64,000 nt of DNA from a bacterium (GTDB lineage Bacteria; UBA8248), in NCBI GenBank assembly GCA_965202625.1, contig CBDBBI010000010.1:2624001-2688000 (forward strand). The letters run 5' to 3'. The translations under genes and the position numbers were made by a program. A model generated the notes under the pieces. The model saw only the letters and a list, made by a program, of their open reading frames with translations, searched no databases and had not been told where the DNA came from. Shown here one piece after another: positions 4,922-23,047 of this stretch. The first letter of the stretch is position 1. The number at the start of each line of letters is the position of its first letter.

Positions 4922-5365
4922 TCACGCGCTCTCCAGGTAATTGAGGAGAGAATCAAGGCACTCGCCCCAGCCTTCTTCATGCTCATCGCACATGTTCTCG
5001 TCCGGGAATCCCTCATGGGTAAGTATCAGTTCCGTTCCGTTTTCTCGCTCAAGAAATTCCAGCGTCCCCAAGGTTTTTGGATAATTCCAATTCCCTCTCC
5101 CATTGGAACGTATAGACAAGTCGCTCCGGGGGGTGTATCTTGACGAACTCTCCATTCAGGTAAAACGATTCTCCCTCAAATGGCCGCATCTTGATCCGGT
5201 ACCCCCCCCCCCGATTTTGAAATCCATCTCTATTCGGGGTGTTGTTAACCCCTCTGGGGCCCACCATTTTTTCAAAGCTTCTTGTTGCGTCCATGCGGCG
5301 AAGAGTTTTTCCCTCGGGACTCGAAAGATTCGCGCGAGCCGAAGCGAGTGTTTTGACAGGCGCAT
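4922..5365 (-). pseudogene. SRPBCC/AHSA1-family protein with two frameshifts
   Basis: Three overlapping ORFs join into one domain (FAAWTQQEALKKWW / GGGYRIKM..PPERLVYTFQW / TELILTHEGF..HEEGWGECLDSL). First shift at an 11-C run (5202-5212), second near 5075-5090. Confidence 0.85.
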
Positions 5366-17308: not shown

Positions 17309-17863
17309 ATGTCGATCAAACCGGATAAGTGGATATCCAGAATGGCGCGCGAGCATGGCATGATAGCGCCCTTTGAGGACAGGCAGGTGCGGGAGGGTGC
17401 CATCTCCTACGGCGTCTCCTCCTATGGCTATGACATTCGCATCGCCGATGAGTTCATGATCTTCACGAACGTGAATTCCACCATCGTGGACCCGAAGAAT
17501 TTCGATGAGCGTTCGCTCGTCTGTGTGAAGGCCGAAACCTGCGTCATTCCGCCCAACTCTTTCGCCCTCGCCAAGACGGTGGAGTATTTTAGGATTCCCC
17601 GAAGCGTGCTCACCGTCTGCGTCGGCAAGAGCACCTACGCGCGCTGCGGGATCATCGTCAACGTCACGCCCTTTGAACCCGAGTGGGAGGGTTTCGTCAC
17701 TCTCGAGATTTCCAACACCACGCCCCTGCCCGCCAAGATATATGCGAACGAGGGCATCGCTCAGGTGCTGTTCTTCGAGAGCGACGAGGAGTGCGAGACC
17801 TCCTACGCCGACAAGAAGGGCAAATACCAAAAACAGCGGGGCCTCACGCTCGCGAAGCTCTAG
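17309..17863 (+). CDS. dcd: dCTP deaminase
   Basis: [37 protein letters not shown]. Confidence 0.97.
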
Positions 17864-18008
17864 CGGGCACGCACCGCCGTTTCCCTTTCGCCCGCCCGTC
17901 GTTTTCTTTGATGGGCGCAGGTGCGCCGGAGAGAGACGCGGCGACCTGCCGCAGATCTCGAGAGCCGTCGCCTCCGGTAGGGTTGCCGTAACTATGGCCG
18001 CGCAGCTC

Positions 18009-20534
18009 TCAGAAGCCGGCGTTCAGTCCGGTCGTCGTCGCTGAGAAGTCCTCATCGCTGAACACCAGGTGGAACATGCCTTTGGCCGGGCCGTCGCTCA
18101 CCGTCATTGTTCCGCAGTTGAAGGCGTTTTGCAGGGTCTCCAGCACTTTGCGCTTGTAGTCGGTGTCATCGTTTCCGCGCAGGTGCGCGCCCTTGGTCTC
18201 GATGACCAAGATGTGCGACTTGCCGTCGGGCTCTCCGCCCATCGCCACGAAGTCGGGCCAGATGCGCTGCTGCCTCCAGCCCCGCAGGTAGTAATCCCCC
18301 CGCTGGCGCACGGCCACCCGGTGCCACCATCGCAACGCCTTTTGCTCGTCAAGATAACGGGCGAACTTGCGCTCCAGCTCGGTGTCGAATTGCTGCGCGA
18401 ACACCGGCTCGAAAAGGCTGAGTTGCGCTGGTTGGCCGTCGTTCCTCGCCAGCAGCCCCCACTCCTCCGATACGGAGATTTTATAGCTCTCCGCCATGCG
18501 GAAGTTGGGCGGCCCCGTTTTGAGGTCGAAGCGGATTTCGCCCTCGCGCAGTTTGCGGCGAAACGCCTCTTCCGCCTGTCGCTCCACGAGAGTGGTCACG
18601 TGTTCGCGCAGCGTGAAAGCGAGGGAGGAGCGCCGATCGTGAATGTCCGCGTCCGTCTCGCCCTTGTTCCGTAATCGGTCAATCAGTTTCTGGACGACGC
18701 GCGCCGCTTGCCACGGGTTGGGGATGACGTCGGACAGGCGACGGGCATACCATGATATTTTCACCGTCTTGTCGATATACGGTTCGTGCGCATCATGAAA
18801 AACGGGAGGAGCGTCGCCGAGGTCGACGGTCGCCGATTGCCAGCTGGCCGGTTGGGGAAGAGCTTCTCCCGGGTTCGGGGCGTCAACGGCGTCCCAGTCG
18901 ATGGCGGGCAGGATATGCCGTTGGTAGTCCAGCTCAATCCATCCCTTTCCGTCCTTGTGCTGCACGAGTGGCAGGAAAATGTCCTCCCCCCGAAACCGCT
19001 CCCGCCGCTGCGCGGGAACGGGCGGCAACTCCCCGGACGCGCCCATCACCTCGTCCATGAGACCCGTCAAGCCCTCCTGTTCCAGTCCCTTCTTGACGTT
19101 GCCGACCGCCGCGCCCACGTCGGCGTTCCAGCAATACACGTAGCACTGATCCAGCCGCTCCCGCCCCGTGCGCCGCGCATGGGGCTGGCGCATCACCCGC
19201 CCCACCAGTTGGGTGATCGCGCGCTGGGCTTGGGTGTTGTCCAGCATCACCAACAGATAGGCGAAGGGGCAGTCCCATCCTTCCATCAACGCCGCCTTGG
19301 TGATTATCCACCGCACCGGCGAGGATTCGGAGAGCAGATTCTCGCGGCCCAATTCGTCGTTCTCCGCCGACTTCACGCGCACCGCCTCGGGGGAGACGCC
19401 CAGGTTGTGAACCAGATAATCGCGCGCGTCCTCGGCGTGAACGCGCTCTCCGTCGCGCTGATCCTTACCCGTGCGTTCCACGCGCACCACCGAGATGGGA
19501 CGCACGTAGCGGCCCTCGCCGTGCTGGAGCGATTCCGCCTCCGCCGCCAGCCTCTCCAGCTCCTCGTGGGCTTGCGCCAAGGCGTATTGCCATTCGACGT
19601 TCTTGAACGAGGTCACCTGCACCGGCAGCTTTATCATCTCCTCCTCTTTCAGGGCGACGCCGGAGACGTCCGCCAGCAGGTTGCTGACGCCCCGGTTCGG
19701 CGTGGCGGACAGTTCGAGCACCAGCCTGGGATTCAGGCGATTCACGGAGCGGACGAACTCATCGTTTGCTTCTTTCCTTGGTCCGTAGGCCTTGTGCGCC
19801 TCGTCCAACACCACCACAGGGCGCAGCGTCTTGAATACGTTGAACAGGCTGTGCTTGACGGGCCCGTTTTTCGAGGCGCGTTCAAGATACGGATGGTCGC
19901 GCAGCAGGCGGCCTTCCCCCAGCGCGTCGTCCGCATCCGGAAAGAGCGTGGGATACCGCCCGGAATCCCGAAACATCCGGAGGAATTCCCTGCCCTTTCG
20001 CCGGTTGGCGGCGGGCAGCATCAGCAGCATCACGCACAGATAATGGGCGACGTCGGAGGCGGTGAACGGGTCGTCCTTCTCCAGCAGTTTGACGCGCCCG
20101 CCGCTGGCGCGCTCCAGCATCTGCCGGTAGGGATGCTCCCTGCTCCAAAGAGCAGTCTTGGTCTGTTCGTAGATGGCGCGGGTCGGCGTTATCCAGAGCG
20201 TGAGCCCGGCTTGTCGGTTCAGCCGCTCCAGGGCGGCGGCGGCGAGCAGCGTCTTGCCCCCGCCGGTTGGCACCTTGAAGCAGACGTGCGGAATGGGGCG
20301 TCCTGCCCCGTCCGTGCGGCTCACGTAGTCGCCTGCGGTTTCCGCCACGCCGCCGATTTTCGCCAGTTTTTGCCAAGCGGTTTTGGGGTGGTTGCGCACG
20401 TCGTCGGGAACGTCGGCGTTGGCGTCCCGCAACGCTTTGGCGGCTTGCGCGGATCTGATCCGCTGCTCCTCCAGCGCGTTGTGCCAGCGGACGAAAGCCT
20501 TTAGGACGGCCACCTGGTATTCTTTCAGCTCCAT
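18009..20534 (-). CDS. res: Type III restriction enzyme Res subunit (helicase + nuclease)
   Basis: Walker A PTGGGKT, DEAH, LSATP, EGWDCP, QLVGRVMRQP, C-terminal PDFV...IETKG. Confidence 0.92.
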   Translation of the reverse strand: MELKEYQVAVLKAFVRWHNALEEQRIRSAQAAKALRDANADVPDDVRNHPKTAWQKLAKIGGVAETAGDYVSRTDGAGRPIPHVCFKVPTGGGKTLLAAAALERLNRQAGLTLWITPTRAIYEQTKTALWSREHPYRQMLERASGGRVKLLEKDDPFTASDVAHYLCVMLLMLPAANRRKGREFLRMFRDSGRYPTLFPDADDALGEGRLLRDHPYLERASKNGPVKHSLFNVFKTLRPVVVLDEAHKAYGPRKEANDEFVRSVNRLNPRLVLELSATPNRGVSNLLADVSGVALKEEEMIKLPVQVTSFKNVEWQYALAQAHEELERLAAEAESLQHGEGRYVRPISVVRVERTGKDQRDGERVHAEDARDYLVHNLGVSPEAVRVKSAENDELGRENLLSESSPVRWIITKAALMEGWDCPFAYLLVMLDNTQAQRAITQLVGRVMRQPHARRTGRERLDQCYVYCWNADVGAAVGNVKKGLEQEGLTGLMDEVMGASGELPPVPAQRRERFRGEDIFLPLVQHKDGKGWIELDYQRHILPAIDWDAVDAPNPGEALPQPASWQSATVDLGDAPPVFHDAHEPYIDKTVKISWYARRLSDVIPNPWQAARVVQKLIDRLRNKGETDADIHDRRSSLAFTLREHVTTLVERQAEEAFRRKLREGEIRFDLKTGPPNFRMAESYKISVSEEWGLLARNDGQPAQLSLFEPVFAQQFDTELERKFARYLDEQKALRWWHRVAVRQRGDYYLRGWRQQRIWPDFVAMGGEPDGKSHILVIETKGAHLRGNDDTDYKRKVLETLQNAFNCGTMTVSDGPAKGMFHLVFSDEDFSATTTGLNAGF

Positions 20535-20540
20535 CGTCCG

Positions 20541-22369
20541 CTATCCCGCCTGGTGCAGTTCATAAGGCAGTTGGCAGAAGGTGACGCCCATGTGCGTGAG
20601 CGCGCGCTGGCCGACGTATTTGCCCGCTCCGAAGACGATGGCCGTTTTCTCGTCTCGCCGGCTGGCCTCGCCGATGCGCTCCGCCCGTTCCTCGTTCAGT
20701 ATCGCCTCGTTGCCGCGCAGGTAATCCGCGTCGGGTTCGTAGAGAAGGTAGTAGTCGGTCGCGTCGCCTCGATGAAACAGGCCGTCCTCGTTCAGACGCT
20801 CCAGGGCGTTCGCGCCGCTGGATGCTCCGCAAGCCGTGTGCAGAAGCCAGGCGGCCAGGGCGGAGTAGGTCGGCAGGGCGTCTCCCCTGAGCATCCCCTC
20901 AATCGTTATCGGCGCGCCCAAAGTGCAATAGGTGAACGCGCCGCCCAGACCCTCTCTGAGGGATTCGTCCTTCGCCCCCGGCACGCCCCTGATGACGCGC
21001 CGCACCCGCTCGGCGGTGATGGAATCCGCGTAATCCTCGCATTCGATGAGAATGAACCTGCGGTTTCCGCCGTCCTCCTTGTTCAGGGCGAGAACGGCGT
21101 GGGCCGTCGTGCCCGAACCGGCGAAGGAGTCTAGGACGATGTCGCCGGGGCCAACGTTCGCGAATCGAAGTAGATCCGCCACAAATGGAACTGCTTTAGG
21201 GAAGTCAAACAACCTTTGTCCATCGAATATGGTCTTGATGGTGTTGGTTCCGTTCGCCGCTGAGTATTGCGTTTTGTTCCATAGCGAGGTGGGTTTTTCT
21301 CTGAAATTGCCGTCCGCGTCACTTGGACGAATTTTTATGGTGAACTGATATCCCATCCTTTTGTGCGGCTTGATCAGCAGATTATGCGGCTCTCTTTCTA
21401 TTTTTTGCTTTCCCCACCGCCAAACGGCCGCTTTCCCCTGCCCGTCCGTAGGATAAATTTCCGTGTTTGAAGACGAGCGCCGCTTGGTAGATATGGAAAG
21501 GTCAGTTCCTATAAAGATCGGAAAATGCAGATTGGGGCGGTCCTCGGGAGTTCCGCTCATTCCTATTCGGACGAGCCCGCTTCCCAAGCGATAATCGCCT
21601 CTTTTGTCCTTGTACCATCCTTCTTTCGGCGGGGTTTTTATGAACGTCCCCATATTTACTCGGGATGCGTCTTTTGCAAAAATGTGAACGTGTTCATTCA
21701 CTTCCCGCAGCCATTTTCCCGACACCGCCCCAAGATTCTGAATCAGGACAAGCGTGTCCAGAAAGTTATTCTCCCCGAATATCTCCTCCATAATACCCAG
21801 GAGTCGCCATTGTTCATGATCGTCAATGGAGACGAAAATCACGCCGTCATCTGCCAATAGTTCCTTGAGCAGATGCAGTCTTGGCCACATCATGCAGAGC
21901 CATTTGTCGTGGCGTTCGAGGTCTTCTCCGTCAACGGGGCTGTTCTGGGCGAACCACGCTTGCATCAGCGGGCTGTTCACGCGGTCGTTATACACCCAGG
22001 CTTGGCTTCCCGTGTTGTAGGGCGGGTCGATATAGACGCACTTGATTTTGCCGGCGTAGCGGGGAAGGAGCGCCTTCAGGGCGTGCAGATTGTCCCCGTG
22101 GATGATATAATTATTTTCTGGCTCTCTGCTCTCTGCTCTCTGCTCTCTGCTCTCTGCTCTCTGCTCTCTGCTCTCTGCTCTCTGCTCTCTGCTCTCTGCT
22201 CTCTGCTCTCTGCTCTCTGCTCTCTGCTCTCTGCTCTCTGCTCTCTGCTATGAGACAGTGCGTCGCCGCATTCTGCGGATTTGGCTTCGTCGGAAACCAG
22301 CGGTCGGTAGGGAACGGTGAGGTGGTGGGCGTAAACGTGCTGCTTGCCCTTGAAGTCAATCGTGGGCAT
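20541..22369 (-). CDS. mod: Type III DNA methyltransferase Mod, frameshifted (OFF) at a heptamer repeat
   Basis: 5' part MPTIDFKGKQHVYAHH; after the repeat another frame gives IIHGDNLHALKAL, IDPPYNTG and DSFAGSGTT. Confidence 0.9.
22121..22249 (-). repeat. Simple sequence repeat (AGAGAGC)18 plus 3 nt inside mod
   Basis: 18 perfect GCTCTCT units from 22121 to 22246 on +, then GCT. Confidence 0.98.
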
Positions 22370-22564
22370 CGCGCGGAATCTCCCCTTGAAGTGAGCGCGC
22401 AAGGTAGCAGAGTCGGAAGAAGCGGGCAACGCCCGGCGGCTTAGGAGGACCGCAGACACCTTCGCCCGTCTTGATATTTCGCGCGCCTGTTGTATGATGA
22501 TGTGGGTGAGGAAGAGAAACCGCCCATTTCAGCAGGCGCATTAAGCGCACGCGGAGACGTTCCG

Positions 22565-23047
22565 GTGGCGCGTCAACTCTCTCATGTGGATGGGCAAGGT
22601 CGCGCCCGAATGGTGGACGTAGGCGAGAAGCCGCTCACCCATAGGGAGGCTGTGGCCCGCGGCCGGTTGGAGATGGCACCCGATACGTTGCGCCTCATCA
22701 TGACCGGCGGCGTCCCCAAGGGCGACGTCCTGGGCGTGGCGCGCGTCGCCGGCGTCATGGCGGCGAAGGGGTGCGCGAACCTCATTCCGATGTGCCACCC
22801 GCTGCGCATATCGAGCGTGGAGATCGATTTCTCCGCCGATGCGCCGGCCGGCGCGCTCCGCATTGAAGCCGCCGTGCGCGCCGAGGACAGGACGGGTGTG
22901 GAGATGGAAGCCTTGACGGCTGTGAGCGTGGCAGGCCTGACCGTCTACGATATGTGCAAGGCGGTGGACAGGGGAATGACGCTCGCAGAAGTCCGGCTGG
23001 TGCGGAAAACAGGCGGAAAAAGTGGAGATTACGTTGTCGATCCATAG
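22565..23047 (+). CDS. moaC: Cyclic pyranopterin monophosphate synthase
   Basis: ARMVDVGEK, LIPMCHPL, TGVEMEAL, YDMCKAVD, KTGGKSG. Confidence 0.96.
   Translation: MARQLSHVDGQGRARMVDVGEKPLTHREAVARGRLEMAPDTLRLIMTGGVPKGDVLGVARVAGVMAAKGCANLIPMCHPLRISSVEIDFSADAPAGALRIEAAVRAEDRTGVEMEALTAVSVAGLTVYDMCKAVDRGMTLAEVRLVRKTGGKSGDYVVDP

Follow-up and report, generated by a model that had tools for sequence, protein, structure and literature searches.

A Type III mod gene split by an (AGAGAGC)18 tract in a bacterium with sponge-associated relatives: a probable phase-variable restriction-modification system caught OFF

The locus studied here, situated in the window (i.e., the whole analysed stretch of 64,000 nucleotides), consists of a Type III mod gene and a co-oriented res gene, which are bounded by dcd and by the divergently oriented moaC (Table 1). 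The res gene starts 6 nt past the mod stop. PADLOC identifies the pair as MTase_III (1.2e-104) and REase_III (6.3e-194), the top model for the 841-aa Res being PDLC03653. Concerning the assignment to the restriction-modification (R-M) systems of Type III, Mod exhibits the elements of a beta-class N6-adenine methyltransferase (DPPY, target-recognition domain [TRD], FxGxG), albeit split by the tract at n = 18, and the adjoining Res possesses SF2 helicase and PD-(D/E)XK motifs (PTGGGKT, DEAH, SAT, MEGWD, QLVGRVMR, PDFV, and IETKG). The expectation that res is intact was correct, since all of these motifs are found in a single ORF, and no second lesion exists across the 4.1 kb of mod and res.

Table 1. 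Position of the features of the mod-res locus within the window.
Feature	Position	Strand	Remarks
dcd (dCTP deaminase)	17309..17863	+	left boundary of the locus; neighbour also in G001 and G015
res, Type III helicase-nuclease	18009..20534	-	841 aa, intact single ORF
mod 3' frame	20541..22118	-	525 aa, without internal stop
Target-recognition domain, exchangeable	21164..21773	-	residues about 116-318 of the 3' frame
Motifs in the mod 3' frame	GDNL 22097-22086; DPPY 22028-22017; FAGSG (in DSFAGSG) 21125-21111	-	beta-class order
Premature TGA at n = 18	22076..22078	-	product of 97 aa; ORF 22076-22459
(AGAGAGC)18 tract in the variable linker	22121..22246	-	frame lost at n = 18 and restored at n mod 3 = 1
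mod 5' segment, ATG and 40 codons (MPTIDFKGKQHVYAHHLTVPYRPL...)	22250..22369	-	conserved N-terminal arm of the Mod family
moaC	22490..23047	+	right boundary, divergent from mod; neighbour also in G001 and G015

The reading frame of mod begins with the ATG at 22369 (MPTIDFKGKQ...), and its residues 1-31 share 74-77% identity with the orthologues of two congeners (L004, L005). After 41 codons it enters the perfect heptamer tract, by which it is split; TRF calls the tract at 22121-22249 with 18.4 copies, 100% matches, and 0% indels. Tract, ORFs, and motif positions thus bear out the original prediction that the catalytic part of mod lies in a frame other than that of its start. When unit numbers from 0 to 30 were computed, a single full ORF resulted only when n mod 3 = 1, with a Mod of 604 aa at 16 units and of 611 aa at 19 units, exactly the two numbers that had been proposed to restore the gene; the offset of 374 nt given for the two frames is the distance from the ATG at 22369 to a GTG at 21995 and yields the identical frame rule. 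This GTG is the start of the 484-aa ORF reported by the gene caller, from whose product DPPY is absent. Re-initiation as a rescue of the OFF state was rejected, as in-frame ATG, GTG, or TTG codons are lacking between the tract and DPPY, where two CTG codons leave CTG starts possible. Measured by the features used for phase-variable mod genes in the accessible part of Atack et al. (2018; PMC5909438), the tract lies above the threshold (at least 3 units for units of 3 nt or longer), the unit is not a multiple of 3, and the full ORF can be restored. A promoter scan of 17700-22700 yielded a single site, on the moaC strand and at chance level.

The host genome (G000; 3.09 Mb, 10 contigs) contains just three 7-mer tracts of at least three copies (14, 23, and 18 units), each with its own unit, and among the 51 phylum genomes three consecutive copies of AGAGAGC are present solely in this host, at its mod linker, such that the tract is not explained by chance. 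A dispersed heptamer family comparable to GGGAATC of Xanthomonas or GGGGA(C/T)T of Nostoc was likewise rejected, given the single site of AGAGAGC among the 51 genomes and the three different units of the three long tracts in G000.

Among the other repeats of this genome, a perfect (GCACCTC)23 (L002:6682-6842; G000:C10:1297681-1297841) starts 3 nt past a sigma-70-like site (TTGTCA-18-TAGAAT with TG) and ends about 127 nt ahead of the ATG of a single-chain R-M gene (intact, 1,463 aa; PADLOC REase_MTase_IIG, 3e-148), whose expression it could tune through leader length; two of the three long heptamer tracts are situated at 5' ends of R-M genes. The remaining one, (GAACTCC)14 on the minus strand (L001:6613-6710; G000:C10:1244612-1244709), ends 2 nt ahead of the ATG of a low-GC 449-aa ORF with metallo-beta-lactamase fold that is not found in 22 congeners. 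A further ATG just upstream of this tract is in another frame, and the tract may be a second frameshift switch or part of a leader ORF. An in-frame G10 among the opening codons of a further gene for an N6/N4 methyltransferase (L036:1389-1398; G000:C10:498034-498043) is a second candidate switch, in this case ON, whereas the poly-G/C tracts beside six further gene sets of G000 revealed no second frameshifted R-M gene. The genome exhibits 19 matches to PF01555, one of which (L042) contains three internal TGA codons. On contig C10, 20 G/C runs of at least 10 nt are found versus 5 A/T runs, with a tail of up to 15, and a NeuB/cytidylyltransferase frame (L250) exhibits one G/C run at its 5' end. 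Within the window itself, a C11 (5202-5212) is located in a SRPBCC/START-like ORF region (4922-5294, minus strand) that is apparently split into two frames and lies downstream of an ArsR-like ORF (family names read from the translation), and a 15-nt tandem repeat of 2.6 copies occupies 633-671.

In sequence, the closest solved structures to Mod are 6K0W (4e-39), Mbo45V (2e-36), and EcoP15I Mod (5e-33). These three share with the Mod of the locus the beta-class order DPPY - TRD - FxGxG, but differ from it by their low identity (22-28%) and in the N-terminal region, which is shorter at the locus. An AlphaFold model of the orthologue from the congener G001 (60-row alignment, pLDDT 69, TRD unresolved) retrieved Type III Mod structures as top fold matches in Foldseek (4e-29 to 3e-20). 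In this model, the site corresponding to the repeat insertion is a coil (27-39) flanked by two strands (22-26 and 40-44), and a repeat-peptide insert is likely tolerated by Mod. We infer this tolerance rather than observe it, because the linker of an ON allele would measure 228 or 249 nt (16 or 19 units), i.e., more than any natural in-frame linker among the scored loci (at most 180 nt). A second Type III mod-res pair of the host (L209; G000:C10:2841296-2845400) is intact, possesses a linker without a tract, and encodes a Mod with 43% identity to the 3' frame of the first.

Close matches to the locus (at least 55%) were found in three of the 23 genomes of the genus, namely in the host itself, in G001, and in G015, and in all three the order dcd - res/mod - moaC is syntenic. 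The orthologue of G001 is without a tract and encodes an intact Mod of 542 aa, whereas the one of G015 contains, at the identical site and out of frame, a different heptamer tract, (AGAACGG)12 with one variant unit. Also this unit occurs in three consecutive copies in only one of the 51 phylum genomes, exclusively at the mod linker of G015. The congeners hence differ from the host in the presence or in the unit of the tract; this comparison of orthologues and the lack of another lesion at the locus speak for a switch. The G015 locus exhibits extra frame changes, one in mod and three in res, two of which look, as read from the sequence, as though a short run had gained one base; frame changes are also present in two other genes of this contig, and decay or assembly error may account for the extra changes. 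A search of the 51 phylum genomes with a degenerate DNA pattern yielded no further orthologue; a match in G018 and a second one in G015 turned out to be unrelated genes. Two more Mod homologues of G001 are split mid-gene and not at the linker: L028 (G001:C1:2096712-2100371), of which the sequence was read, and G001:C1:2631291-2632590, for which the split is known from the match table only.

Concerning the origin of the host (GTDB label UBA8248), the lineage had been expected to be unlike the known pathogens, and this is confirmed by its L11 protein cluster, in which the named members are MAGs of Nitrospinae/Nitrospinota (4 named among 40 read), as well as by DNA at least 99% alike to the locus in sponge metagenomes. 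R-M genes are described as enriched in sponge symbionts (PMC5649159, in its accessible part). Over dcd, res, and the two conserved mod segments, two sponge metagenome runs of another study (X5 and X6) agree with the locus in long contigs, with at least 99% identity and without indels, and the parts of res covered in X5, X6, and a further run (X2) are free of indels; X2 is possibly the source sample and as such not independent of the locus. The substitutions listed against X5 and X6 in the conserved 3' part of mod amount to three, all of them synonymous, and three are listed in res, two of which change a residue. The contigs of the assembled runs end 32-50 letters past a tract edge, such that the unit number is unreadable from them; those of X5 and X6 stop 32 letters past 22118, i.e., 30 letters into the tract position. 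These ends, in which the tract letters themselves are unseen, would fit the breaking of a 31-mer graph at a tandem repeat. In an RNA run (X7), dcd is covered, res is uncovered, and mod is present only in short pieces running on into unlike sequence, which is uninformative on expression.

The TRD differs from its surroundings: its GC content is 0.49, that of the conserved 3' segment 0.65. It has no match among the TRDs of the syntenic congeners and shares 70-77% identity with homologues of Chloroflexota. Contig 24 of X6 is identical to the locus over 21774-22118 and continues, exactly from the TRD boundary, with 184 unlike letters; to judge from these letters, the strain in X6 appears to carry another TRD. 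[quoted passage not shown] In X5, the TRD is uncovered, which is compatible with another TRD and by itself no evidence of one. Exchange of the TRD among near-identical strains suggests that the system is in use.

For a wider view of the mod family, 166 loci, some of them near-duplicates, were compiled from species genomes (78, out of the best 80 of 530 matches), from metagenomes (80, the best 80 of 457 matches), and from the genus search (8). Thirteen were excluded (the N-terminal catalytic segment was missing in 8 and the N-terminal motif in 2, and 3 lay at a contig edge), and 153 were scored with thresholds after PMC5909438. Linker tracts exist in 10 of them, the own locus included, within 8,019 nt of linker in all; the rest of the gene contains 7 tracts in 235,833 nt, such that tracts are 42-fold denser in the linker, where 0.24 would be expected. 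Nine of the 10 loci with a linker tract are out of frame, versus 4 of the 143 without one (two of these 4 possess a G8). Apart from the heptamers, the linkers contain tracts of poly-G or poly-C, 9-27 nt long, and the records concerned bear the titles Poribacteria, Dehalococcoidia, Pseudomonadales, and Spongiisociaceae; some of the frame calls at such runs may be sequencing errors.

In a quick IQ-TREE tree of the conserved segments (141 distinct rows, without linker and TRD), the 12 rows with a tract (G8 and C8 counted) all fall inside one clade of 85 rows (SH-aLRT 99) and none among the 56 rows outside; this count omits the in-frame A8 of L126, which lies outside the clade, and the contrast may be inflated by short-read assemblies, which lose long tracts. 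To judge from the taxon names and from general knowledge of these taxa, the clade is presumably rich in sponge symbionts. Tract presence requires 12 changes on the tree, at least 5 of them forced by starred branches, with gain and loss being indistinguishable. Different repeat units, however, cannot go back to a single origin.

Truncated N-terminal products in the protein database point in the same direction: their peptides fit (TCCAG)n, (GGTC)n, a 10-mer repeat, and poly-C at the linker point (units derived from the peptides and counted by eye), and at least four prolines are found at this point in 10 of 54 such products. Eleven homologous loci with an in-frame stop, or with a tract or run in the linker, were checked for res, and 9 of them encode it in one open frame; in the other two, res is absent from the flank or is cut by the flank end, respectively. 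Homologues from viral collections, which are more distant relatives, possess a linker tract in none of the 28 scored (of 41). When the 525-aa frame was searched against proteins, the host's own 484-aa product matched at 100% and all others at 77% or less among the best 120 of 7,993 matches; in the linkers of the 119 remaining best homologues of full length, no heptamer peptide was found, and thus no in-frame allele among them. The mod products form singleton protein clusters. Two records exhibit tandem mod copies ahead of one res, namely a Dehalococcoidia record with three copies, each with C10-C11 in its linker (L071:3821-9161), and a Poribacteria record with two copies, each with C9 (L107:3956-7509); combinatorial switching of specificity is possible in these cases.

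Taken together, the locus is probably a Type III R-M system that is phase-variable and was caught OFF, as judged from its sequence and that of its relatives. At 18 units, the frame closes after codon 97, and no standard start yields a product bearing DPPY. Slipped-strand mispairing, which alters such tracts by whole units (PMC5909438, in its accessible part), would restore a full Mod, with a surface loop containing the repeat peptide, whenever one unit is gained, two are lost, or n mod 3 = 1 is reached in another way, and in a mixed population about one length class in three would be ON. In EcoP1/EcoP15, Mod provides sequence recognition and stabilises Res; site recognition, guidance of Res, and an increase of the Res level are described as functions of Mod (PMC3874151, in its accessible part). 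OFF cells would be r- m-, with the site neither methylated nor restricted, and ON cells r+ m+. The tract would have been gained in the host lineage, in a linker where relatives independently gained other units. Most likely, the switch serves to hedge bets in defence and DNA uptake within a dense community associated with a host, and effects on gene expression are possible. As to the ON/OFF switch for both methylation and restriction that had been postulated, it is well supported by the anatomy of the locus and by the comparison with relatives, whereas switching as such is what we infer from them.

The switch could instead be kept mainly for the ON/OFF methylation of a gene set (e.g., for surface or host interaction), restriction being secondary, and the locus would then be a true phasevarion. 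This seems unlikely, even though a phasevarion was controlled by each of the mod groups examined so far that combine variable tracts with multiple TRD alleles (PMC5909438, as far as accessible), the TRD is exchanged at the locus as well, and the bacterium is host-associated. Inactivation of res, a supporting but not required feature of phasevarions, is not found at the locus, and res is intact also in 9 of the 11 checked homologues, whereas in some strains of H. influenzae the loss of res accompanied the evolution to a regulator (PMC1976455, in its accessible part). The intact res fits a switchable defence at least as well as the candidate phasevarion of the original prediction, which was to this extent overstated, and given the 19 PF01555 matches of the genome, one more methylated motif would be one among many.

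Still less probable is a neutral expansion of the repeat in a tolerant loop of a gene being lost, with OFF fixed, or selected once, and no reversion. It would agree with the OFF state of the dominant allele and the missing ON allele among the best homologues, with the extra frame changes in mod and res of G015, with the long heptamer tracts elsewhere in G000 outside annotated ORFs, and with the over-representation of heptamers among bacterial repeats, which may have mutational reasons such as polymerase bias (PMC4692102, in its accessible part). A decaying gene would, however, hardly be expected to retain mod and res without a second lesion, neither over the 4.1 kb nor in the parts covered in two other samples, and to keep its tract uninterrupted; the clustering of tracts with units not divisible by 3 in one short linker in several phyla, and a TRD exchange that suggests use, argue against it as well. 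That 18 is a miscount and the actual allele a stable one with an intact frame appears very improbable. Assemblers can misstate tract lengths (PMC5909438, accessible part), and the public runs are kept as contigs in which units cannot be counted. However, the contig of 2.9 Mb points to long reads that would span the 126 nt, an error would need to comprise a whole 7-nt unit, an independent genome has a different out-of-frame unit at the identical site, and a perfect tract of 16-19 units is unlikely to stay stable anyway.

Beyond the probable OFF-state switch of this locus, a broader scenario may be sketched with considerable reserve: one Type III mod family would be shared horizontally by sponge symbionts of multiple phyla, switches (poly-G, poly-C, two heptamers, and, by inference from peptides, units of 4, 5, and 10 nt) would have evolved repeatedly in its linker beside exchangeable TRDs, and the switch of the host would drive a regulon. 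We regard this combination as doubtful; if true, pathogen-style phasevarions would mark sponge-associated life as a convergent trait and would not be a speciality of vertebrate pathogens. Atack et al. raise the question of why bacteria other than pathogens possess phase-variable methyltransferases, and note that OFF cases escape surveys based on full-length genes (PMC5909438, in its accessible part); the present locus constitutes an example of such a missed OFF gene, in the setting of a beneficial symbiont. Its heptamer tract is, unlike the poly-G/C of its relatives, exactly countable in long reads, and the same molecules can carry methylation signals, which makes it a good place for a direct test of phase variation in an uncultured symbiont. 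The locus is of interest mainly because one linker has repeatedly and independently gained switches, and because this long-read test is easy.

In the accessible part of Atack et al. (PMC5909438), repeats are reported for 662 of 3,805 mod genes, with units of 1-9 nt and including environmental hosts. A 7-nt unit in mod is accordingly not new, nor are repeat-bearing mod genes of environmental bacteria, and the designation of the unit as unusual was overstated: M.Eco131I of STEC, with its CAGCGAC26 tract, is a tested precedent, for which length variation in the population was recorded by fragment analysis and the motif GCC(m6A)TC by SMRT (PMC5909438). A search for AGAGAGC in the supplementary tables of that paper gave no match, as did one for CAGCGAC, the tables listing enzyme names only. 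In the literature covered, outside of which most subscription journals lie, no report on phase-variable mod genes in sponge symbionts was found. Like the mod gene of the locus, M.Eco131I of E. coli possesses a long heptamer tract near its 5' end with a unit not divisible by 3; the two are likened by tract anatomy, our locus being known from its letters only, and they differ in the unit and in the host, a sponge symbiont as opposed to a pathogen. With the phase-variable mod genes of pathogens in general, the locus shares the frameshifting tract at the 5' end, the conserved ends around an exchangeable TRD, and res downstream. In these pathogens, units are 1-5 nt long, one unit is kept per group, and regulons have been shown. 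The family of the locus differs from the pathogen mod groups in that several unrelated units are found in one linker across phyla and in that res is mostly intact.
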